Assembly (NCBI GenBank): GCA_951406725.2
Contig: OX597824.1
Location: forward strand, 39,432,001 to 39,496,000
Source: Octopus vulgaris
Taxonomy: Eukaryota
Direction of reading: 5' to 3'
Length of the DNA: 64,000 nt
Part shown: in pieces, positions 10,305 to 64,000 of the stretch
How the letters are laid out: the number at the start of each line of letters is the position of its first letter
How positions within the stretch are numbered: position 1 is the first letter of the stretch
Notes under the pieces: model-generated
The model's database searches: none
What the model saw: the letters and a program-made list of their open reading frames with translations, nothing else
Told to the model about the DNA's origin: nothing
Translations under genes and position numbers: made by a program

Positions 10305-10720
10305 CAGTTTACTATTAAGAAGCTTCATTTTCAACCATATGGCTCCGCATTCAGTCCTACTGCGTGAAACCTTGGGCAGCTGTCTATTATCTCCGGCCGA
10401 CCAAAGTCTTGTGAGTCGATTTAGTAGATGGGAACTGGAAGCTCGTCTCATATATATATATATATATATATATAGATGTATGCATATTATATATATGTGT
10501 GTATATGTATGTATGTATACGTATTTATTCATGTGTGTCTGTGCTTGACAACCGATTTTAGTGTGTTTATGTCCTTGTAACTTGGCAGTCCGGCAGAAGA
10601 AAATGATGGAATAAGTACTAGGCTTACAAACCATAGGTCCTGGGGGTCAATTTCTTCGATCAAAAGTTGAAGGTAGTGCACCAGCATGGCCACAGTCAAG
10701 TGACTAAAGCGAGTAAAATA
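10305..10720 (+). mobile_element. CORE-type SINE family B with an internal (TA)/(TG) tract
   Basis: CAGTCCTACTGCGTGAAACCTTGGGCAG core and CCAGCATGGCCACAGTC tail. Matches 53245-54010. Confidence 0.8.
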
Positions 10721-22439: not shown

Positions 22440-22570
22440 TGGATGTATATATGTATAAGAGGATTCCAAACAGCTTCTACCGAATCCACTCACAAGGCAT
22501 TGGTCCGCTTCGGGCTTTAGCAGGATACAAATGCTCAAGGTGCCACGCAAGAGGACTGGACGTGAACCCA
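22440..22570 (-). mobile_element. SINE family B fragment
   Basis: Reverse complement of the family B head and core (CTCAAGGTGCCACGCA on the plus strand). Confidence 0.7.
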
Positions 22571-24827: not shown

Positions 24828-24911
<84 letters not shown>

Positions 24912-24915
<4 letters not shown>

Positions 24916-25085
24916 CTTTACTACCCACAAGGGGCTAAGCACAGAGGAGACACACAAGGACAGACAGACGAACTAAGTCGATTATATTGACCCCAGTGCG
25001 TAACTGGTACTTAATTTATCGATCCCGAAAGGATGAAAGGCAAAGTCGACCTCGGCGGAATTTGAACTCCGAACGTAACGGGCGG
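24912..25085 (-). mobile_element. 5'-truncated SINE family A variant with the TTGTGGGTAGTAAAGAAAT tail
   Basis: Core reversed. Tail matches 27541-27560. Sits against a (TA)n tract. Confidence 0.85.
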
Positions 25086-26300: not shown

Positions 26301-27140
26301 ATCCTTTCAACTAAAGGCACAAGGCCTGAAATTTCTTTAGTGCACTTCTGTTAAATAGTGTGGGTGTTAGATTATTTGTACAAATAAATAAGAATAACAT
26401 CGTAACGTCACAGAGAGAGACAGCAACTTTACTTTAATTTACCAGCTGACACTGTGCAGCGAACCGGGGTGATTTCCAGGTAGGTTTGATCGTCTCTCAC
26501 AAACTTTGTAACTAGAAAACTTGTAATGAGGAGAGGGATCTGAAATAATTTTGCTTTGTTTATTTCAGCTGATATTTTTGTTTTGCTTTTTTGTTTGAAT
26601 TATTGATATTACTAAGATGTGCTTATATATAACTATTACTAAATAGTTTATATAAACAGATATAAAAATATACAAAGTTTTCAGACTGGCAAGAATTTCA
26701 AATTTTATGTTTACTTATCTATATTGTATTTATACAGAAATTCACATATGAATTAAAATAAAACTTTAAAAGTATTTATTTGATATAAGCAGGATTCTTC
26801 ACTGAATTTCAGAATTATTTATTTATTTGATATTTCCATTCAGCATGCTCTCATATTCTCTTTTACGATATTTTCATGAAGGTCATGCAAAAATGTTAAA
26901 GTTCGTAAACAATATAGACGCAGTCCAAGTTTTCATGAGCAACCCATTATACAAATTATATTTTCTCATATTTTAATTTCTACTAAATTAGTATACTCAA
27001 TAAAATGTATTAATTTCTTATATCTTTTATATTTAAAGATGCAAAACGTTTAGTGATACAATATCGTTATATTTTTATGCTTGAATATTTAAAATTTCTC
27101 ATTGTAGTATGTAATAGATAATGCAAAGATATTAAGTATA

Positions 27141-27560
27141 GATAAGGCGGCGAACTAGCAGAAACGTTAGCACGCCGGACGAAATGCGTAGCCGTATTTC
27201 GTCTGCCGTTACGTTCTCAGTTCAAATTCCGCCGAGGTCGACTTTGCCTTTCATCCTTTCGAGGTCGATAAATTAAGTACCAGTTACGCACTGGGGTCGA
27301 TATAATCGACTTAATACCTATGTCTGTCCTTGTTTGTCCCCTCTATGTTTAGCCCCTTTAGGGTAATAAAGAAACAGGTATTTCGTCTGCTGCTACGTTC
27401 TGAGTTCAAATTCCGCCGAGGTCGACTTTACCTGTCATCTTTTCGGGGATCGATTAAATAAGTACCAGTTACGCACTGGGGTCGATGTAATCGACTTAAT
27501 CCGTTTGTCTGTCCTTGTTTGTCCCTTCTGTGTTTAGCCCCTTGTGGGTAGTAAAGAAAT
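27141..27560 (+). mobile_element. Nested or dimeric SINE family A variant (two body-plus-tail units of about 185 bp) with 14-bp TSD
   Basis: TSD AGATATTAAGTATA at 27127-27140 and 27561-27574. Units at about 27193-27376 and 27377-27560. Confidence 0.9.
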
Positions 27561-27994
27561 AGATATTAAGTATAATTGCTAATCTAGCGCCTCACCTGAC
27601 AGCAAGCGTGAATCATAAATCACTGATAAACACTTGATTCGTAAATACAATATATCAGAGCTAACAAAAGAAAATCTTTCGCAATTTCCTTCCAAGAACT
27701 AATATCAATATCGATGTAGTTATTATGAAAGCAACGTACAGTGTAGCACATGTTATTCATCAATAGCTATTTAACAAACTTAAAACCTAACTGTCTATAT
27801 TTTAATGTGTCTGAAATGTGTTAAACCAGTAAATGACCAAGAGAAATACACTTCTTTAATAGGTCTTAGTTGTGTTAAATTGTTAAATAGCTATTAAGGA
27901 ATAACATGTGCTGGATTGCACATTGCATCCATAATAACCTCATCAATATTGATATTAGTTCTCAAACATCTTTATAAATCTGAAGCATCTACGT

Positions 27995-29900: not shown

Positions 29901-30055
29901 CTGTGTTGGCAGCTGAGGTTTGAGTACGAATGAACTAGTTAATTATTATCTGCATTATCTAGAACCTTCTCTTGTAGCAAAGCATATCTTTTAATGTAAT
30001 TTGCTCATATGAAACCATTTATCATCATTCTCATGATTCAGAGAGTAACATTCAT

Positions 30056-30081
30056 TTCTACTCTAGGCACAAGGTCCGAAA
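30056..30081 (-). mobile_element. 26-bp SINE family A tail insertion with 17-bp TSD
   Basis: CAGAGAGTAACATTCAT at 30039-30055 and 30082-30098 flanks TTCTACTCTAGGCACAAGGTCCGAAA. Confidence 0.85.
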
Positions 30082-33324: not shown

Positions 33325-33387
<63 letters not shown>

Positions 33388-37684: not shown

Positions 37685-39440
37685 GTTGGATGGCCTTTGA
37701 CTGTTCAGGAGTTCATCCGCCCTTCGACAGATCTTATTTTTCACCCCGTAGAGTGTCCAAAAACACCCTCCTCACCAAGCAAATCTGGAGGGGTTGCTTG
37801 TTTAGTCGCCGACGACCCGACCATGCGACAGGTTGTACTGGATTACATGTTACCAGTAGCACTCAAGAGCTACCTGACATAGTTCCAAATATAGTGTCTG
37901 AGTCTCAGTACGGTTTTCGTTCCTCCATGGGCACAGCTGATTGTATCTTTACTGTCAGACAATTTCAAGAAAAGTGCATTGAACAGAATATTGCTCTATA
38001 CTATTGCTTTGTTGATTTGAGCAAAGCCTTCGGTACTGCTAATCGAAATGCTCTGTGGTTAATTCTAAAGAAAATATGAGCAGGGCTTTTGATGGTAGAC
38101 TCTCTGTACCTTTTGCTGTGGAAAATGGAGTCAAGCAAGGAGACCTTGATGCACCAACCATCTTTGCAATATACTTTGCTGTTGTGTTGTCACATGCTTT
38201 TCAAAACTCTGAGGAAGATATTTACACAAAATATCAAAAAACAGGGAATGTTTTAATCTGACCAGACTGAAATTCAAAACGGTTTTTCCTTCACTGATTA
38301 GGGAACTTTTGTACGCTGACGATAGCGATCTAGTCAGTCATTCTGTAACAGATTTGCAATCTCTGGTATCTTCATTTGACTCGGCTTGTGATGATTTGGG
38401 CTTGACCATCAACTTGAAAAAACAGATAAAATGCATCAACCTGCGTGTGATGCTGTTTTGTAACCCTCTAAAATGTTTGTTAAGAGAAAGTTACTTGAGG
38501 TTGTCGATTCGTTCGTCTACCTTGGGAGCTCTGTTCAAAATTATGGAATTTTGATTCAGAAATACAGTTGCGAATTCAAAGGGTAGCAAAAGCATTTGGG
38601 CGCTTGGAGTGATGCATTTGGTGCCAGCGAATATAGATAAGAATACAATGCTGGCTCTTTACAAATCATTTGCCTTACTATCCCTGTTGTATTCCTGGGA
38701 ATCTTGGACTTGTTATGAAAGGCATTTTAAATTGTTAGAACAATTCCACCAAAAATGCCTTCATCGCATTTTAGAAATTAAATAGAGTTCTTTTACTCCA
38801 AACACAGATGTCCTTGCATCTGCAGGCATCACCTCAAATGAGATGATGTGGCCATATTGTTCGAATGGCAGATGAACGCATACCAAAACAGCTGTTTTAT
38901 GGTGAGTTTGCAGAGGGTAAAAGCTATTGGTGTAAACCTAAAAAAAGGTTTAAGGACGACATAAGGATTACAATGAAGTCACTTGGAATGGTTCCAGAAG
39001 ATATAGAAACACTTGCTTCGGATCGAGTTGGATGGCTAACAAACGTGTGGAGTGGAGTGAAAACATTTCCAGGGGCCAGGATAAAGCAAGTAAGACTCAA
39101 AAGATTCTTTTGATGGCCTCAAATCTCATCAGCGAACACATGGAAAACGAGCGTCTACCATCTATTGTGACTATATTCTGTGCAATCCTTTGAATGCAGT
39201 GTATGCCAGAAGGTTCGCAATTCCAACGGAGGCCTCAAAAAAGATTTTAAGATCCACAAATAGCAGAATTTATCTGCAGCTCTTAGTGGTCCAAATCGGA
39301 GGTGCAATCTATGTGGGTATCTTTTCAGAACATTGTCTTTTCGGAACATTAAAAAGCCACGTCAGATGCCATGATGGTAATAAAGTGTAGGTACAAGGGG
39401 TAGTTAGACTCTGTACATGGAGCAGACAACCGCCATGTAT
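37685..39440 (+). mobile_element. RTE-clade LINE, internally deleted and decayed
   Basis: SESQYGFR..TADCIFTVRQFQEKCIEQN..FVDLSKAF, GVKQG, LLYADD and MADERIPKQLFYGE. (TA)n tail. Confidence 0.92.
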
Positions 39441-44526: not shown

Positions 44527-44720
44527 ACAGCTTTAAAAAATAAACTTCGTTGTCCTATTGCTCTCTCTCTCTCTACTGTATATTTACTGGCTTCATACGT
44601 TGCTCACTGCAAGTTTATATATATATAATGTATATATGTATGTATGTGTGTGTGTACGCACGAGTAGGTTTGTGCATGTGCTTTTGTGTGTGTTGTTTGT
44701 GTGCGCGTGTGCGTCCGAAC

Positions 44721-44767
<47 letters not shown>

Positions 44768-44916
44768 CATATGTTCGGACGCACACGCGCACACAAACAA
44801 CACACACAAAAGCACATGCACAAACCTACTCGTGCGTACACACACACATACATACATACATATATACATTATATATATATAAACTTGCAGTGAGCAAGTT
44901 TATTTTTTAAAGCTGT
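44527..44916. repeat. Near-perfect fold-back palindrome centred on (AT)n
   Basis: 44600-44897 is self-complementary. Outer arms at 44527-44547 and 44896-44916. Confidence 0.95.
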
Positions 44917-44919
44917 GAG

Positions 44920-45801
44920 TACTATTTCTAATGAGTTCAGTATGTGGCAAAGTAATTTATTTTACTAAGCCCTTTTATATAATGTAATAATTTGAATTCG
45001 CCTTAAATGGTCCCTTTGCATACTGAATACTTGGTGAAATTGATTAATAATTAATTAATTTTACCCTCAATTGTTGAAATTATAATTCATCTCTCTCTAT
45101 TAAATGCTTCGGATTTTACCGAAAAAGCATAGTGTTTACTGATTTTAACCCACGCTGGTGGAAAGGGGAGAGCAGAAATTCTTCGCTTGCATATTTTGAG
45201 TTTGCTGGCACTGTTAGTTTCGAGCAGATCTTCAGAAGCGATAAGAAGCTGAAAGGGTATGCTCCCACTTTCAGTGTTTTCAAATCCAAACCAAGGAGTT
45301 CTGAGCTGATGATAGAAATGTCGAGTTGACTAATCTAGAAACGTACGTTCTCAAATAACCTTTGCATTTGATTTTTTAATGTCTTTACCCCCATACTTTC
45401 GTGAGTTGAATTGAGCAAACACTATATGAGAGAGATTTTCTTTAAGTATTAGAAATAGTTTTATAAAAGTTTTTTTAGCTACTATTTCTAATGAGTTCAG
45501 TATGTGGCAAAGTAATTTATTTTACTAAGCCCTTTTATATAATGTAATAATTTGAATTCGCCTTAAATGGTCCCTTTGCATACTGAATACTTGGTGAAAT
45601 TGATTAATAATTAATTAATTTTACCCTCAATTGTTGAAATTATAATTCATCTCTCTCTATTAAATGTTTCGGATTTTACCGAAAAAGCATAGTGTTTACT
45701 GATTTTAACCCACGCTGGTGGAAAGTTTTTTTAGCTACTATTTCTAATGAGTTCAGTATGTGGCAAAGTAATTTATTTTACTAAGCCCTTTTATATAATG
45801 T
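44920..45801 (+). repeat. Direct duplication of 246 bp plus a partial third copy
   Basis: 44920-45165 matches 45480-45725 (one mismatch seen). Partial copy at 45722-45801. Confidence 0.95.
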
Positions 45802-46065
45802 TATAATATATATATATACATGTATATATATGTACATATGTATATATAGATAGATAGAGAGATATATACGTCTTAGATAGGAAGATAGATACATAAATAT
45901 ACGCATACATCGCATAAATATATTGAGAGAGAGAGAAAGAGAGAGCGAAAGAGTGGGAGTAGCGAGGGAGAGTAGAAAGAGATGGTTGAGAAAAGAGAAA
46001 TCCTGTTTATTTAGATCAAGTTGTTATATGTTTTTGATTCTGCATTTTTGCCTATTTTTTTTCAG

Positions 46066-46719: not shown

Positions 46720-46766
46720 AAGGCGGCATTGGCAGCGAACTTGGCACGCTAGAGAATATGCTATAC
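46720..46766 (+). mobile_element. Diverged SINE family A head, probably the 5' half of the SINE split by the Tx1 element
   Basis: AAGGCGGCATTGGCAGCGAACTTGGCACGCTAGAGAATATGCT compared with the head at 27144, AAGGCGGCGAACTAGCAGAAACGTTAGCACGCCGGACGAAATGCG. Confidence 0.55.
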
Positions 46767-46769
46767 ATT

Positions 46770-49202
46770 AATTGGATTAACAAATCGATATCCGGAAGAA
46801 GCCGGAAACGAATCGGTCACTCGGAGGTGGTTTTGAAAGACGACATGCAGCTGAAGCACACATACGCATGCGCCTTTCTTTACTGAGGATGGTAATATAC
46901 GCAGCTACTGGCGCCAAGAACGGGGGTACCTGAAAAACGTCCCATAACTGCTACGGCTAATGCTGTGGTGTTACTGAAGTTAGGCAGATAGCAGCGGATT
47001 CTCATTTAGAGAATGTCTTTTCTCTTTTTCTGCTCTTATTGTCTTAGTGTGGATCGGTGCTCGCAGTGCGTTTGCTCTTCAGGTGTTTGTGAAGAATAGT
47101 TAACATCGAGGACTTTCTTGCCGAGCTACCACGCCTCTCGGGGTCGGATGCGGAGGCTTGCGAGGAGCCGATCACGCCTGGGGAGGTGACGGAGGCTAAG
47201 TCTGACTGTAAAGCGGGTAAGTCACTGGTACTTGATGGTCTTCCTTACGCGCTATATAAATGTATGCCAGACTTGTTCGGGCACCTACTGGCTAGCGTGT
47301 ACGCGAACTGTCAACAGAATGGGTTTATCCCCAGATCTGTGCACCGAGGAGTGGTGACGTCGATCAAAAAGGACCCGGACAAGGGGGACGTTATAGAGAA
47401 TTTCTGGCCCATCACTCTGTTAAACATAGCAGTGAAGATTTTGGCCAATGTTTTAGCAAAAAGGTTGGCGCATGTCGCGAATGGTATAGTCGGGGAAGCA
47501 TAGACATGTGCCATCCCAGGTAGAACCATTCAGGATAATCTCTATCTTATTTGCTATACCATAGAGAGGGTTCATGATAACAGTAGCAATGGTGGGGCAT
47601 TGGTGCATTTAGAGTAAAACTTTTTATAGGATCGACCATCAATACCTGGCGACTGTGCTTGCGCGGTTTGGTCTGGGCCTTGGCTTCCTCATGTGGTTCA
47701 TCGCTCTGTATCACAACATTGACTCGATAGTTCGGGTGAATGGTTTCCTTTAGAAGCCGTTCTGCATCAGACGCTCGGTTCGTCAAGGATATCCGTCCGG
47801 GAAAAGTCGGTCGGCTTGCAACTCGGCACCTGGGTTGGAAAATCGATGCCTCCAGACAGCGTTGTTGGGCGCTGGACGGAGGGTCCGGTTAAATTGCTCG
47901 GAGTTTGGTTTGGACTAGGACTCGAGATAGAGAAGAACTGGGCGGAGGTTTCGAGCAGGGTGGCTGCAATAGTCAAGACCTGGTCTTGGCGGTGGCTATC
48001 CCTGAAACGGAGGGCGGAGGTGGCCAATGTGTTTATTGCATCGGTGATAACCTACCGCGTGGCTGTTGGGCCCTGTCTGGATTCGTGGGTGATCAGGTTG
48101 GAAAGGCAGCTCTTTCGCTTTTTGTGAGGGGGCAAGTCGCCACTTGTGAAACGCTCTATCTGTTGTCAGGAGCCGTTAAAGGGAGATTTAGGGATGCCTT
48201 GGTTAATGATGCGTAGACATGCGTTGAGGTTGAGGTACCTCTAGATTCTCCTTGATAGTGAAGGGGTGTGGTCTCCGCTAGCCAGACAAATGTTCCCCAA
48301 GTTCAAAAGTTTTTGCGAACAGGAAGTCGGGTGTTCTCGTAGACTACATCGGGTAAGTCGTATATGGAGTGTCGTAAGGCCCTCCTGCTATTCCGGCGCA
48401 ACGCCAGCGGTGGGAGCTCTACATGTTTATTATATAGTGGGTTGCTAGAGTCTGGATGTGACGATGGCCTGGGAGTCTGTTCCACCGTACGTTCGTTTGA
48501 GAACGTTGGCGAATTTCCAAAAGTCCTTGACCTGGCAATGTTATAGGGGCACCTTGCCCGTTTGGGATAAGCTCGCAAGACATGGGAAGTCTCACTGTCC
48601 GACCTGTCCAAGATGCGGGGTGATAGGGAAACCGTTCCTCACGCTATTGCCCAATGCCCGGAGGTGTCTGAAATGTGGGTTTATGCTGAACACCTGTTGC
48701 CCGGCGAGGAAAGAGTACAGCTGTCGACTGGGTCAATTATAAAAATTGATCCATCGGAATTTTTAACAAATGAAGGTAAGAATTGTTTTCTCACTGTTGT
48801 TGCAATAGCGAAAGAAGCAGTGTGGAAGACTAGGATAAAAGCGATTAAGCCGGTTAACTTTATCTCCGCCACGAGGTAAGTTCATTTTTCACTTTTCACT
48901 TGAAAAGGAAAATATGGCTGGAGAAAAGGTACCTGTCGGAGAGTGCTGTGCATGCAAAGAACCATGTGAACAGGCTATGGAAGAAAAACAAAAGTTGAAA
49001 GAAGTACCAGCGACCGATCGGGGCTTATGGGGTGGGAGCGTGGCCTGATCATCGCTACATTTGTGTCATATTTGTATAGTATATTTCATTCGATTCTTAT
49101 ATATTTTATATAATTTTTATATTCATATTTATGTAATATCATAACGTGTTACTGACCCCAATCAGTTGTTTTGTCTCATTCTTTGTGGGTAATAAAGAAA
49201 TT
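46770..49202 (+). mobile_element. Tx1-clade (L1 group) LINE, internally deleted and decayed
   Basis: GKS..LDGLPYALY, ENFWPITLLNIAVKILA, AIPGRTIQDN, SVRQG, VKLLGVWFG, and zinc finger CPRC..ETVPHAIAQCP. 3' tail TTGTGGGTAATAAAGAAAT. Confidence 0.9.
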
Positions 49203-49360
49203 GGTATTTCGTCTGTCTTTACGTTCTGAGTTAAAATTGCGCCGAGGTCGAATTTTCCTTTCATCTTTTCTGGGTCGATAAACTAAGTACCAGTTGTGTA
49301 CTGGAGTCGATTTAATCGACTGGCACCTTCCCCCAAAATTTCGGGCCTAGAATAGAATAT
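49203..49360 (+). mobile_element. SINE family A 3' portion beginning at GGTATTTCGTC
   Basis: B-box, core and ordinary tail, with no head. Directly abuts the Tx1 tail. Confidence 0.85.
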
Positions 49361-52969: not shown

Positions 52970-53200
52970 AATCCAATTATACTGTCGCTCCTTCCTGTGT
53001 GAACTGTTTAAAAAATAAATATCTAATTGTACAACTACCTTGAAATAAAGATGAATTACTAGGAGATGAACAAAACTGCAGGAAAGGATCACGAGAAACA
53101 AAGGATGAATTGCCGATGGATTAGATAATTTTGAGGGACTTACATTGACTTTAAGAAAGCATACAATATCGTGTATACTCGTGCATTCTTACAAATAGAT
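52970..53200 (+). mobile_element. Decayed R4/Dong-like RT fragment
   Basis: DEQ..RKGSRETKDEL and IDFKKAYNIV. Similar to 60880-61050. Confidence 0.6.
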
Positions 53201-53244
53201 CTTTAAATATTACTGGAAGTTATCGTTCCTATCCTTATACACAT

Positions 53245-53713
53245 AGGAGTGGGGGTGGTAAGTGGATTGCTTACCAACCAGATGGTTCTGGGTTCAGTCC
53301 CACTGCGTGGCACCTTGAGCAAGTGTCGTCTATTATAGCCTCGGGCCGACCAAAGCCTTCTGAGTGGATTTGGCAGACGCAAACTGAAAGAAGCCCAGCA
53401 TATATATGTATGTATATATGTATGTGTATGTATATCTTTGTGTGTCTGTGTTTGAAATTTCGGCCACTGGTCATTTAGTCAACGAATCTAGTCAACACAC
53501 AAGACAGCTTGGACACAGTTGAGACTCGTAAGAAACAATTATGAACTTTTTTATTACACTTAACTTCTAAAAATATTTTTGATAAGGCTCGTTTTTTCAA
53601 GAAGAACCGAAACATGTAAAATTTCTAAGAAAATTAAAATTTATCTTATATAGTGGCGTTTTCAAACTTGTTTTTTATAAATATATACCCACTCGTATAC
53701 CACCTACACTTAT

Positions 53714-53790
<77 letters not shown>

Positions 53791-54010
53791 GTGTGTATAT
53801 GTTTGTGTGTCGGTGTCCCCCCCCAACATCGCTTGACAACCGATGCTGATGTCTTTACATCCCCGTAACTAGCGGTTCGGCAAAAGAGACCGATAGAATA
53901 AGTCCTAGGCTTACAAAGAATAAGTCCTGGGGTCGATTTGCTCGACTAAAGGCGGTACTCCAGCATGGCCGCAGTCAAATGAATAACAGGACAATGAATA
54001 ATAAGAATAA
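53245..54010 (+). mobile_element. SINE family B head (53245-53455) and tail (about 53790-54010), separated by other sequence
   Basis: GGTTCAGTCCCACTGCGTGGCACCTTGAGCAAGTG core and CCAGCATGGCCGCAGTCAAATGA tail. Confidence 0.85.
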
Positions 54011-55942
54011 AAGTTAATCTAGTAAACAAAATAACTAAATCGTCTCTCCCCCCCCAAAAAAAAAATTAGCTCTACTGTATAACGAATACGGTTATATTAT
54101 TATATAATATATTTCTAGATGCAATATGGGTTCAAATGAGACTTCATAATGATATATTCTCCCAGCCAAACAATATTTATAAGTGTAAAAGAATAACAAC
54201 AGAGACAATGTTTAAAACATTTGTCAAATGTTTTTTTTTCTTTTTTATTAATAGGAGTAAACTCGGGCTAACTTCATAACAACTTAGCCATGCACTTCTA
54301 TCTTACCTTCAACCGACACGTATATTGTTTCATCTCAATCTAGTCGTTACTTCTGATAAGAGACGAATGACGTTATACAGTAGAGCTTTATTTTTTGTTT
54401 CATGGGCGGAACGATTTAGTTATTTTGTTTTACTAGATTAACTTTTATTCGTATTATTCATTGTCCTGGTATAAATGTGTATAATGATAGTAACGATAAC
54501 TTCCAGTGATATTTAAAGATCTATTTGCAAGGATGCACGAGTATACACGATATTGTATGCTTTCTTAAAGTCAATGTAAGTCCCTCAAAATTATCTAATC
54601 TATCGGCAATTCATCCTTTGTTTCTCGTGATCCCTTCCTGCAGTTTTGTTCATCTCCTAGTATTTCATCTTTATTTCAAGGTAGTTGTACAATTAGATAT
54701 TTATTTTTTAAACAGTTCACACAGGAAAGAGCGACAATTCCTAGTGAATTCCTTTCGTTCAAGAACACTCACCAAAGTGATTTAACTGATTTGGCATGGC
54801 CTGTAAAAGTAATGCATTCAGCATTTTCCGCCACATCATTCTATTAACAAAAATACTTACAACTACACACAGTCTTGAATGAAGACATGAATGTAATATT
54901 TCCTTCTTGCTGTCGTGTAGCAACCATAATCTGCCTCAAATCAAATACCATCGCCTTAATGAAAGTACACAGAGATAAACGTCGTCTTATATATATCTAA
55001 TATATATCAATCATAGTATGTGTGTATATTGACTAACACATACATTTCTACAGTTCTCAACCGACCTTCTTTACACTCACATTACTTATCTCCCAAGGAT
55101 GGTCATACATTATAACATTTTACCCAGAGCTCCCACGTAAATGGACAAACCGGGGTAAACGGTGGTTTACACGGGCTTTTCTCTCTAATTCGTTGTATGT
55201 ACATAGTTTTTTTTTATGTAGTGTCTCCCATATATTTTTAATCCGTATGGTCGTATATTGGCATTAGAGAATATTTTTAGTGGTTTTCACATATTTTTAT
55301 TTATTATTTACTAGCTTACAAGCCGCACTATTAGGCGGTTTTTAAGCTAGCTCCTGTGGAGGACACTTCATTAGGCCTTGTTCCCCAAAATTACACTTCA
55401 TGCATTGAGAACATATTAAATTTTATTAAACTTGAACAATGTTTTTCAAGCAATGAGCAATTTTCATCAAAGCAATGATATAATTTGTCGACTTGGTACT
55501 TACTGCAAAGCTGCGTGATAAACAGCAGTACCACCACCATCTGTCATACACACACCATTGAGACTTCTGACGCCAACACCATCAATACCTTTAACTTCAC
55601 TGCCAACACCCCTGTCTTTCACATCACTTACTCTCACCGTCATCCTTGACCACGTCGGCTACCATCACCAGCATCATCATTACAGCTGCCTCTGCCTCTG
55701 TCACAACTACAGTTCATATTATTACTATCAACCCATTACCATTACAAAAACCTAAATATGTGTAAATGAATTTTGTTCACGTTGTTAGTTCAGTATGTTG
55801 GTTCAGTGTTCAGTCCCTCTTTCTCTCACATACCCACTCTTTCTCTTTCACTTATTATTTCTCCCAATACCACCATCAACACTACTACTTTTAATAAAAA
55901 CATCAACTCTCCCTAAATTTCTTTGTTCCCCCTCTTTTCTTT

Positions 55943-57008: not shown

Positions 57009-57062
<54 letters not shown>

Positions 57063-57065
<3 letters not shown>

Positions 57066-57508
57066 TTCTGCTCAATACCACAGATTTGCTTGTCAGTTGT
57101 TTGACTTTAACCAGTTGAACATGTCCCTTAGTGGCTGACGATATGTGCATCTCTGATCACGATCAGAAGTAGTGGGGGAGCATCGTAGCCATGTGTTGAG
57201 AGGGATTCTTTGGGGTTTGAATAATTCACCTCTGGAAACATGGGTGTTTCGTTCAACATCCTTAAACAACCCTTATTCAGGGACCTTTCGAGTGGGATGG
57301 GTTACTCGACCTGAAGAAAATTCTAACTAGGTCCCACCTGCAAGGTCATGTGCTGTTTATCTTGATATGAGATCACCATGTCGCGCACATATGGTTGTGA
57401 TGCATGTGCCTGGTGTACCCTTATCAGACGGGTAGTCATGATGGGTATACTGGGCTTCGTATATTTTACCCCAGTGTCACTTTGATGGCATGCACTGCTC
57501 TCTCACTC

Positions 57509-57509
<1 letters not shown>
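57063..57509 (+). mobile_element. Non-coding retroelement 3' fragment embedded in (TAA)n
   Basis: An inverted paralogue lies at 58632-59150. Both copies end at the same point in (AAT)n and differ at the 5' end. Confidence 0.75.
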
Positions 57510-57580
<71 letters not shown>

Positions 57581-57582
<2 letters not shown>

Positions 57583-57961
57583 GATTAGTAAATATAAAGA
57601 CCTGCTAATAGAAATTGAAAAAATGTGGCATCTCAAGGCGACTACAGTCCCAGTGATTGTAGGATCTCTAGGAATGATATAAAAAAAGGTACTGAAACCT
57701 ATTTGAAAATGATTCCAGGCTTATCATCCCTACAGGAAGTGCAAAAAATCCTGTTTACTGGAACGGCTCATCTACTGCGAAGAGCGTTATCACTGTGAAA
57801 ACAACATCCATCCATGAATTTATTTATTTATTAATTTTTAAATACATACTGTGAATTTTCGTGTGTAATCTGGGAATGCATACAATGAGCTTCACTGCCC
57901 TAGGTGTATGGAAAACACTCAGCGAGAAACGGAAGAAAATTTGAAGAAAGAAGGAAAAAAC

Positions 57962-57962
<1 letters not shown>
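57581..57962 (+). mobile_element. R4/Dong-like LINE 3' fragment (RLE C-terminus plus UTR) in (TAA)n
   Basis: KISKYKDLLIEIEKMWHLKATTVPVIVGSLGMI..EVQKILFTGTAHLLRRALS. Confidence 0.88.
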
Positions 57963-57992
<30 letters not shown>

Positions 57993-57999
57993 TAATAAC

Positions 58000-58595
58000 A
58001 ACATGCGGCATTTTGTCCGTCTTTACGTTCTGAGTTCAAATTCCACAGAGGTCAACTTTGTCTTTCACCTTTTCGAAGTCGATATATTAAGTACTAGTAA
58101 AACAACGGGAGGCCATGTAATTGACTACTCCGCTCCAACAAAATTTCATGCTTTGTGCCTTTATTGAAAAGGATTGTTATTGTTTTTAAGAAGGTAATTT
58201 GGTAGAACCGTTAGCACTCCGGGCAAAATGCTTTGAGGCATTTTTGTCCGTCTTTACGTTATAAGTTCAAATTCCACCGAGGTTGACTTTAACTTTTATC
58301 CTTTTGGGGTTGTTAAAATACTCCTAAAATTACTTCCCATGAGCCAAAATTTGAAACCATTATTACAATTATTATCATTGTTAAGGCGGCGAGCTGGTAA
58401 AATCGTTAGCACGCTAGACGAAATGCCTAGCAGTATTTCGCCCGTCGCAACATCCTGAGTTCATATTCCTCCAAGGTCGACTTTACCTTTCATCCTTTCG
58501 GGTCGAATAAATAAGTACTATTTGAGGACTGAGGAAGATGTAATCCACTATCCTTCATCCTCAACATTTCAGGCCTTGTATCTACAACAGAAAGG

Positions 58596-58631
<36 letters not shown>
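58000..58631 (+). mobile_element. Head-to-tail cluster of three SINE family A copies
   Basis: Cores at about 58050, 58280 and 58480. Clean head at 58383. Confidence 0.8.
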
Positions 58632-59150
58632 GGGTGAGAGAGCAGTACATGCCATCAAAGTGACACTGGGGTAAAATATACGAAGCCCAGTATACCCATC
58701 ATGACAACTCGTCTGATAAGGGTACACCAGGCACATGCATCGCAACCATATGTGCGCGACATGGTGATCTCATATCAAGAAAAACAGCACATGATCTTGC
58801 AGGTGGGGCCCAAGGTCTCCTAATAAGGATTGTTTAAGGATGTTGAACGAACCACCCATGTTTCCAAAGGTGAATTATCTAAACCTCTAACAATTCCTTT
58901 CAACACACTGCTATGATGCTCCCCCACTACTCCTGCTCATGATCAGAGATGCACATATCGTCAGCCATTAAGGGACATGCTCAACTGGTTACGGTCGAAC
59001 ATCTGACAAGCAAATCTGTGGTATTGAACAGAATATTTTCTGTAGCTCATCTTGTCTACAAAGACAAAACAATGTACATGATAACACTTTCAGTCAGTTA
59101 AGATTAGAAGCCATGTGAGCCACTGCCTGGTACTGCATCAGGACATGGTA
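58632..59150 (-). mobile_element. Second copy of the 57063-57509 element, inverted
   Basis: Reverse-complement match, with an internal deletion of about 40 bp near 58812. Confidence 0.8.
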
Positions 59151-62080: not shown

Positions 62081-62752
62081 TAATATAATGTAGATTAATG
62101 TAGAGTTGTTTTTATAACTAAACATAAAAAGGGAAGCTAATAACTCATTTTTATCATGAGAAAATGTTTTAGTTGAATATACATCATTGAATGTTTCACT
62201 GTATAAAGTATTCAGCTTAGCACTTAACTATATGTTCTTCATGTAGACCACAATTTTACCATTGTGAATTATTATGTAAATATACACACACACACGTGTG
62301 TGTGTGTATATATATATATATAGAAATAAATACACTTTAGATCAGTTAAAAGTATGTTCAGAACATATTTGAACTTGTCTTATTTCAGATTTGGCGTGGA
62401 GAAAAATTATCGATTTAGGCATAAAGAGAGTTATTTATGGATTAGTGAATTCATTTAATGCTCTTTTGTGTTTTTCAGTATCAGATTCCAAGACAGACAA
62501 CTTGGAACTGATTGGAAAGTTTATCTTTTTTCGTACGAAATCAGAAATTACATACGTAAACCGTCACGCCGGAACAAATAGAGAAGTGAGCAAGTAAAAG
62601 ATGGAGAATAACTTTAGATCAGTTCTAATATATTTAGGACAGATTTGAAAGCGTGCATCTACCTATCGCTTTAACATGGCCATAGCTGTGGTACAAATGA
62701 CATTGAGCGAATTTTTACTGTTATCATTAAGTTAAAATTTTTTTTCGCTTAT

Positions 62753-63140
62753 TAAGGTGGCGAGCTGGCAGAAACGTTAGCACATCGGGCGAAATGCTTT
62801 GCGGTATTTCGTCTGCCGCTACATTGAGTTCAAATTCCACCGAGGTCGACTTCGCCTTTCATCCTTTCGATTAAATAAGTACCAGTTACGGACCGGGGTC
62901 GATATTTTCGACTTAATCCGTGTGTTTGTCCTTGTTTGTCATCTCTATGTTCAGCCCCGTGTGGGTAGTAAAGAAATAGGTATTTCATGTTTTTACGGAT
63001 TGAGTTCAAATTCCGCCGAGGAATTAGCCTTTCATTCTTTCGGGGTCAATAAATTAAGTACTAGTTGCGTACTGGGATCGATCTAATCGACTGTCCCCCT
63101 CACCCAAAAATTTCGGCCTTGTGCCTGGAGTAGAAAAAAA
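62753..63140 (+). mobile_element. Nested SINE family A: a Tx1-tailed copy inside an ordinary copy
   Basis: Head and core, then GTGGGTAGTAAAGAAATA|GGTATTTC at 62979, then a second core and an ordinary tail. Confidence 0.85.
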
Positions 63141-64000
63141 TGTTTTTCGTTTGTCCCATCTCTCATGGTTTTTCCCCAGTTCATACCCTGAATTTTCGTT
63201 TGAAATGTTTGTCTACCACTAAAATATATATTTTGTTTAGTCATATTAGTTATTAATTATTTTTAATAAGTCGACTGGTCATTTGCGACACTAGTGTCTG
63301 ATTAGACATTCATATTGTATATATCGTTTCCGGAAGATTGTTATGTCACTGCTGGTAACCTATCCTAGAGGAACCCATAGCAGGGAGAAATTACGCAATC
63401 TGGAAGTTCCGATATACCCGTGTGCTTATATGTACCACGAGTCCAGATGAGATATCCTCTCAAGTTAAATATCTCTGTATCCTGTGTTCTAACAATTTTC
63501 ACGTCAAGTCGCAGATTAAGATTACCTTTTGGTATTATTATTGCGTATATCGCTATTTTTTTTAGTAAGCCCAGTGGCCATTTGCGACTTTGGTGCCAGA
63601 ATAGACATTATGAAGCACGTATAAGAGTACGACTTCGATACTTGTGATGTTGGTTAGCTTTTAGTCTTCGGTTTACTCCGATGGAGTAAATTACAGTCAA
63701 ATGTATTCCAGCGATGACCATCTCATCTGGGAGATATACAAGACTTAAATTATCCAATTATCCTTTTCCAAGAATACACCTATTTGATGGTACACACATT
63801 AAATAATGTGACATGGGGTTTTCAACTCCTGTTTTAGCTGATAAATTGGTAACCGAAACATTCATACTACTATTACTACTACACTGAACTAAATTGTTAT
63901 CTATCGCTACGTGTAAATAGCCACTAGAATTTAACAGTTGCGAGATAAATATTAAGGATATATAGAATTGCTACTGGGCCAGGAAATATGGGAAGATATA

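Follow-up and report, generated by a model that had tools for sequence, protein, structure and literature searches.

A SINE variant with a LINE-like 3' end, here called V, probably has a preference for a single site inside its own SINE family, directly before position 51 of the element. On balance, we favour the reading that V nests at this position of its relatives and that read-through composites of the nested pairs are re-copied as dimers. Our confidence in the site preference follows from the weights given to four explanations, namely the favoured one, a rather unlikely one that involves the same targeting, and two that we consider improbable. The evidence was drawn from the window (the whole 64-kb stretch of Octopus vulgaris DNA that was analyzed), from reads and contigs mapped to positions 27007-27700 in four public runs, from protein searches and from the literature. 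The feature is real but rests on a handful of junctions, with five tails in the window and perhaps two loci in the reads, and any LINE named as its partner is a candidate.

The parent SINE, variant V and the LINE remnant

The window is microsatellite-rich animal DNA in which the long open reading frames belong only to repeats. A profile of the SINE body gave 20 matches at E ≤ 0.01 in the 64 kb, 12 of which were nearly full length from position 51. The parent element is short, non-coding, dispersed and high-copy, with target-site duplications and 5'-truncated copies, all of which identify it as a SINE, and about 240,000-259,000 contigs per run matched the SINE stretch (27007-27700) in organisms D and E. 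Motifs resembling the Pol III A and B boxes (judged against the box consensus) were present about 64 nt apart in all six SINE copies examined, with at most two mismatches in the A box and one in the B box. The ends of the SINE head region pair with each other in the RNA fold. ARAGORN found no tRNA genes, and Rfam gave neither a tRNA nor an snRNA match, so that a U1/U2-derived head of the SINEU type was not found. Ohshima and Okada are said to have described the tRNA-derived octopus SINEs OK, OR1 and OR2 in 1994, and the parent SINE may be one of these.

Variant V comprises four SINE copies (V1a, V1b, V2a and V3; Table 1) in which the ordinary tail is exchanged for a 59-nt tail. The coordinates that the first-pass annotation gave for tails, junctions and flanks were all correct. 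A 17-nt tail motif occurred five times in the window at up to three mismatches, at 24912-24928 (minus strand), 27359-27375 (three mismatches), 27544-27560, 49185-49201 and 62961-62977, with four of the five being exact. Shuffled windows contained a mean of 0.68 such occurrences, and five were reached in one of 100 shuffles. Pairwise identity among the V copies over the unit was 86.4-90.1%. The V copies differed from their own majority at 6-11 of about 120 body sites, compared with 14-26 in the ordinary copies, and V is therefore the younger subfamily. The variant tail was also found in organisms D and E. Two bodiless pieces of the ordinary SINE tail were observed on the minus strand (26305-26334 and 30055-30080), possibly very short truncated copies or the ends of the ordinary SINE's partner LINE.

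Scanning for the tail pattern returned no loci in metagenome contigs and none in genome contigs. Two matches in viral contigs were set aside as chance, as both were without a SINE body and the better one lay inside a phage-like reading frame. None of 257 stretches was confirmed when protein query P0016 was searched against metagenome contigs, and the single supplement of PMC13282606, made up of tables with no repeat library, did not contain the tail motif.

The fifth tail motif lies at the 3' end of a LINE remnant. This remnant had 6531 relatives at E ≤ 0.001, its best match among solved structures was human L1 ORF2p (E ~1e-9), and the best named relative of the fragment was an Argonauta hians protein (48% identity). 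The relatives carry PF03372 (endonuclease), PF00078 (RT) and PF13966 (zf-RVT); in the window copy the PF13966 match was weak and below the cut-off, and the endonuclease part was absent. The combination that defines the L1 group (L1-type RT, APE endonuclease and C-terminal zinc motif) was therefore found partly through the domains of the relatives. As none of the 20 relative clusters that were looked up carried a Tx1 name, the assignment stops at "L1/Tx1-type". No ORF2 homology was found upstream of about 47085. The adjoining 46768-47084 (about 320 nt) has neither protein homology nor other copies in the window, and may be the 5' UTR of a LINE that a deletion has brought next to the 3' half. 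Preceding this is a tentative SINE head, whose match has a window-wide E of 2 and falls inside the shuffle range. No target duplication was found on the 5' side of the LINE or around the composite of SINE head, LINE and SINE body. Elsewhere in the window, 37813-38076 showed a weak match to another reverse transcriptase (E 0.002-0.055).

About 20 nt had been claimed as common to the SINE variant and the LINE tail, and this was borne out by the last 19 nt of the tail, which matched LINE positions 49183-49201 at 18 of 19 positions in V1b and V3, 17 in V2a and 16 in V1a. A shared 3' terminus, as in SINE/LINE partner pairs, is thus present (18/19 nt in V1b and V3). The likeness ended at about 19 nt, and farther upstream 1042 of 2000 shuffles scored equally well. 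Alignment of the tail to the LINE 3' UTR, suggested as a check, accordingly succeeded for the last 19 nt or so but was no better than shuffles over the rest, and homology of the whole 59-nt tail to the 3' UTR of the window LINE was ruled out. Since the V and LINE tails show no more than chance resemblance 5' of the last 20 nt, this LINE copy was not the direct donor. The idea that the SINE caught the tail of a LINE that targets it therefore holds as far as the terminus and the register (see below) are common to both, but not with the window LINE as direct donor. Terminal hairpins in the V tail gave z-scores of -1.05 to 0.86 against shuffles, which does not support a stable 3' stem-loop. The 20 nt at 49183 may also be a tiny insertion separate from the LINE, given that tail-only units exist (see below) and that 49165-49177 matches the target site at 9 of 13 positions, a score reached in 345 of 5000 and 276 of 5000 shuffles.

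Table 1. Positions of the V copies, the elements joined to them and the LINE remnant in the window.
Feature	Position	Strand	Remarks
V3	24911-25081	-	5'-truncated V with tail; ends in (TA)n; (AT)n run near 5' end
Left 14-bp target-site duplication	27127-27140	+	13 bp if the first A is the last base of the tail
SINE 5' part, positions 1-50	27143-27192	+	A-box-like motif 27156-27166
Hairpin	27176-27205	+	Arms 27176-27188 and 27193-27205; loop 27189-27192; DNA fold
V1a	27193-27376	+	SINE position 51 onward; B-box-like motif 27220-27229; variant tail 27318-27376
V1b	27377-27561	+	Starts at SINE position 51; variant tail 27503-27561
Right target-site duplication	27561-27574	+	14/14 identical to 27127-27140
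SINE 5' part, decayed (tentative)	46720-46767	+	Best head-like score after the eight true heads, 34.7 (next 33.2)
ORF2 remnant, broken, of L1/Tx1-type LINE	47085-48998	+	Stops and frameshifts; about 72 aa of RT missing at 47795-47801
Presumed LINE 3' UTR	48999-49202	+	Last 20 nt (49183-49202) are the terminus common to V; contiguity inferred
Ordinary-tailed SINE 3' of LINE	49203-49350	+	Begins at position 51; clusters with 62979-63136
V2a with SINE 5' part	62753-62978	+	5' part, variant body and variant tail
V2a	62803-62978	+	Variant body and tail; with 5' part from 62753
Ordinary-tailed non-V SINE	62979-63136	+	Begins at SINE position 51

Three further repeat structures were observed in the window. 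The stretch 52983-54736 has 262-nt terminal inverted repeats (97%) together with inner 102-nt inverted repeats, its inner parts resemble 10332-10707 and 22473-22561 (about 73-75%), and it looks like a non-autonomous DNA transposon. Inverted arms of about 480 nt (84% overall and up to 96% in part) bound 57062-59037, with three SINE copies inside (58005-58600). A 298-nt near-perfect palindrome (44600-44897) adjoins a 246-nt direct repeat of 99.6% identity with a third partial copy (44920-45807), and 44600-45807 is either a very recent rearrangement or an assembly artefact.

The insertion register

The sequence GGTATTTC was found directly after the tail at 27377, 62979 and 49203, in each case as position 51 of the SINE, which bears out the first-pass report of one register for the SINE and LINE junctions. 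Three of the five tails thus end exactly at position 51, with about 12 such sites in the 128,000 strand positions. Position 51 immediately follows the loop of a hairpin, on its 3' side, in three copies (V1a, V2a and the one at 33385), and the RNA fold of 27143-27260 gave a z-score of -3.5. The position also sits between the A-box-like (27156) and B-box-like (27220) motifs, as judged from the box consensus. The SINE copy at 58005 likewise starts near position 51.

All three SINE junctions read GGTATT; the eight intact ordinary-tailed copies listed carry GGCATT (six), GGTATT (one) and AGTATT (one) at this site. The more general motif GRWATT occurs 252 times in 128,000 positions (0.002 per position), and a GRWATT-like start was found at five of six flanks, made up of the three SINE junctions, one non-SINE flank in the window and one non-SINE spacer in the reads. 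The (TA)n flank of V3 fits the motif poorly, with only TAT in common. A preference for GGTATT or GATATT flanks, as proposed earlier, is supported by these starts, with the (TA)n copy as the exception.

The same register could arise with no targeting of DNA if the reverse transcriptase jumped from a SINE 3' half, beginning at position 51, to the 3' terminus of an RNA from V or the LINE, the 3' halves being supplied by SINE RNA that was cut or stalled at the hairpin loop. The exact coincidence of the register with the 3' edge of the loop in three copies agrees with such a jump, as does the start of the copy at 58005, and one head, one enclosing duplication and equal ages of the units would all be predicted by it. 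We nevertheless regard template jumping as improbable, because it leaves unexplained the GATATT and GGAATT starts of non-SINE flanks, the 13-nt piece of the site between two tails described below and, if the head is real, the SINE head upstream of the LINE.

Dimers and tail units in the window and in other individuals

A single perfect 14-bp duplication encloses the entire V1a+V1b dimer at 27141, and the non-SINE 3' flank of V1b begins with GATATT. The other ends proposed for V, AGATATT with a 14-bp duplication in V1b and (TA)n in V3, were both seen, and the claimed tandem unit of about 185 bp corresponds to a measured period of 184 nt (27193 to 27377). V1a and V1b were identical at 163 of 184 positions (88.6%), no closer than dispersed V pairs (86.4-90.1%), such that the greater likeness between neighbours that marks a SINE-derived satellite was not observed. 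Three of the four columns in which the copies split two against two pair V1a with V3 and V1b with V2a. The two units therefore belong to different sub-lineages, and local tandem duplication was rejected as the origin of the dimer. Over whole units, V1a and V1b had six private changes each, contrary to the expectation that the inner unit would be younger than the outer one; over the body only, the upstream unit differed at 6 of 120 sites and the downstream unit at 10 of 120, a slight lean towards a younger upstream unit. Both 5' parts linked to V (27141 and 62753) have A at position 22, where T is present in all four aligned ordinary heads and in the contig majority.

The composite at 62753 is surrounded as a whole by an imperfect duplication (14/17; 62734-62750 and 63136-63152), and its upstream unit is less diverged than its downstream unit (branches of 0.053 and 0.108). 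The units that follow 62978 and 49202 have ordinary tails and non-V diagnostic bases, and were grouped at a bootstrap of 77 in a tree of SINE units in which most other nodes were weak. The two dimers of the window consequently carry different downstream units, V-tailed at 27141 and ordinary-tailed at 62753. This difference bears on the proposal that one or two ancient accidental composites served as masters for the dimers, with no recurrent preference and with a tiny V fragment at 49183. The existence of tail-only units and the absence of homology upstream of the last 19 nt are compatible with accidental masters, and the target-like 49165-49177 (9/13) could be the duplication between the LINE and the fragment. 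We give this proposal little credence, since the downstream units differ, a tiny V fragment at 49183 would still add a third independent insertion at position 51, and any LINE whose end precedes a duplicated site would itself be targeted there.

Reads and contigs from four of 24 runs (X10, X13, X21 and X22) were mapped to 27007-27700. The raw runs were thin, with 27 (X21) and 253 reads mapped from 12.9 million each, and the joints were taken from the best 24 of 1441 loose ends and the best 15 of 1723 joints. In X22, from another individual, at least 25 reads carried, before 27496, the tail end followed by 13 nt of which 12 agree with the SINE site, and at least 18 reads showed this same joint from the opposite side, so that the beginning of the site lies between tail-only units. 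A tail followed by a 16-nt non-SINE spacer starting with GGAATT and then a shorter tail was observed in at least 11 and at least 15 reads, the latter with an agreement of 0.56. The tail-only units of X22 start at TTAATCC, which is SINE-body sequence, and are thus truncated V copies. The spacers of 13 and 16 nt agree with the 13-14-bp duplication at 27141, and since tail-only units stacked around such spacers are what target duplication would produce, the site preference is likely real. About half of the X22 tail reads have four private changes in common (63/99, 66/136, 72/144 and, at 27554, 60/121), which makes one locally amplified array more likely than many insertions, and the 13-nt spacer could be a deletion inside a dimer. 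No tail junction was present among the joints listed for X21 (27 reads). Behind 27250, at least 15 X22 reads leave the SINE body midway and enter the beginning of a further SINE head, which marks another kind of nesting or tandem joint.

Contig depths at 27375 and 27554 were 1.33 million and 5.15 million in X10, and 0.138 million and 2.14 million in X13, and are not copy numbers; an estimate from these depths that 6-20% of tails stand at junctions was set aside for this reason. The X13 run is from a related species (organism E), in which depth was 59.9 over both flanks of the dimer and the distances to the piece ends placed these at 27127 and 27560. We infer that a single contig spans the empty site and that both V units are absent. 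The flanks in organism E differ by at least six substitutions and one insertion in about 260 nt, a few percent, against a difference of 11% between V1a and V1b.

The single enclosing duplication, the equal numbers of private changes, the minority base common to both V-linked heads and the apparent absence of both units in organism E make it more likely that the 27141 dimer reached this locus as a finished dimer, copied from a nested pair that had formed at another site. The first-pass annotation had the dimer built by self-insertion in place; its units are indeed of different sub-lineages, but arrival in one piece fits the duplication and the empty site at least equally well. Building in place would involve the same targeting, with a second V copy entering a resident one at position 51 and a seamless 5' joint formed as the cDNA annealed to the homologous overhang, which would restore the A-box/B-box spacing. 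It draws on the same junction evidence as re-copying, both dimers join units from different sub-lineages, and body-only distances are lower for the upstream unit at both loci (6/120 against 10/120 at 27141). Targeting strengthened by a co-transcribed target sequence has also been discussed (PMC4494074). We consider building in place rather unlikely, as private changes over whole units are equal at 27141, two hits at one locus would apparently be needed after the split from organism E, and the 5' part at 62753 is V-like and not host-like on one column.

L1-group elements nick their target, start reverse transcription at the 3' end of the RNA and leave a duplication of a few bases, with the nuclease setting the target (PMC4494074). 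For nesting followed by re-copying, V would have gained a tail recognized by an L1/Tx1-type LINE and would be copied by the enzyme of that LINE. A sister LINE family is the probable source of the 59-nt tail, through a template switch or a short insertion near SINE position 176. If the LINE nuclease prefers the sequence found at position 51 in the parent SINE, V would insert into its own relatives, with target-primed reverse transcription nicking before G(G/A)(T/A)ATT and duplicating 13-16 nt. A full V inserted at this site, between the A- and B-box-like motifs, would bring its own promoter, and Pol III would read through the V tail into the remaining body and tail of the host copy. Re-copying of the read-through RNA would yield an element with one head and two bodies, and such re-copying of a nested pair is the most likely origin of both the 27141 and the 62753 dimer. 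Runs of 4-5 T, at which Pol III would terminate, are present in V1b, V2a and the unit after V2a, and if this explanation holds these runs must postdate the read-through copying. A structure of outer head, duplication and inner head was not seen in the window or among the joints listed.

A further reading, which we advance tentatively as possible and somewhat doubtful, is a closed parasite loop, in which a LINE came to target the hairpin of a hyper-abundant SINE and the SINE, having captured a tail of that LINE lineage, became its own target and spreads as multimers. Nested copies would stay transcribable because the site lies between the promoter boxes, read-through dimers would be copied in turn, and the family would go on creating new insertion sites both for its own copies and for the LINE.

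Relation to known systems and significance

Self-insertion is known for Zepp. The algal L1 elements Zepp and ZeppL form centromeric clusters, according to the available part of 10.1101/2022.06.16.496473, and pile up among their own copies as V does, but are autonomous LINEs and not a dispersed SINE. The closest precedent is the crocodilian SINEU, which shares the preference of Tx1-Mar for a Mariner element (PMC4494074, Kojima 2015) and whose tandem SINEU-3 copies sandwiching a duplication represent sequential targeted insertions (PMC4494074). Under the favoured reading, SINEU/Tx1-Mar and V are alike in having a transposon as target, a LINE-derived preference, tandem copies that flank a duplication (about 16 nt in SINEU) and dimers, which form subfamilies in SINEU. 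SINEU has U1/U2 heads, a poly(A) tail, no 3' end shared with a LINE and a Mariner target (PMC4494074), whereas V has Pol III-like boxes, 19 terminal nucleotides shared with a LINE and, as its probable target, its own family. Other targeted insertions in the L1 group are those of Xenopus Tx1L into Tx1D, Keno into U2 and Kibi/Koshi into microsatellites (PMC4494074). These elements resemble the LINE proposed here in their sequence-preferring nuclease and multicopy targets, but no SINE target or target-derived SINE partner is described for them in PMC4494074.

Stringent SINE/LINE pairs share their 3' ends, as stated in the available part of Ohshima 2013 (PMC3747384); by comparison, the stretch that V has in common with this LINE copy is only about 19 nt long, and no significant stem-loop was found. 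Dimeric SINEs, jerboa Dip/B1 multimers and SINE-derived satellites are known from the accessible text of PMC10702118, and the systems covered there resemble V in their tandem SINE units, in dimers that amplify as one and in local amplification, as in the likely X22 array. In V, unlike those systems as that text presents them, the repeat unit begins at one fixed position within the element that serves a LINE as well, and neighbouring units resemble each other no more than scattered copies do, although satellite-like likeness of adjacent units may hold for the X22 array.

SINEs account for about 12% of O. vulgaris DNA (accessible text of PMC13282606). Octopus repeat surveys list L1-Tx1 elements and large SINE fractions, and in their available portions no such SINE/LINE pairing was found (PMC13282606, PMC8967140, PMC4758252). 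No account of a SINE that uses a LINE tail to target members of its own family was found in the open-access literature; V or its dimers may already be consensus entries in deposited repeat libraries. Each ingredient has a precedent, and the combination was not found in print.

No effect on a host gene was shown. If the favoured reading is true, targeting, as opposed to slippage, offers a concrete way for a monomeric SINE to become dimers and tandem arrays, and V is an example of a SINE directing its parasite's enzyme at members of its own family. Natural insertion sites would also be available by the thousand, from which the preference of an L1/Tx1-type nuclease can be read, and dated nested pairs could be used to order SINE subfamilies in SINE-rich genomes.
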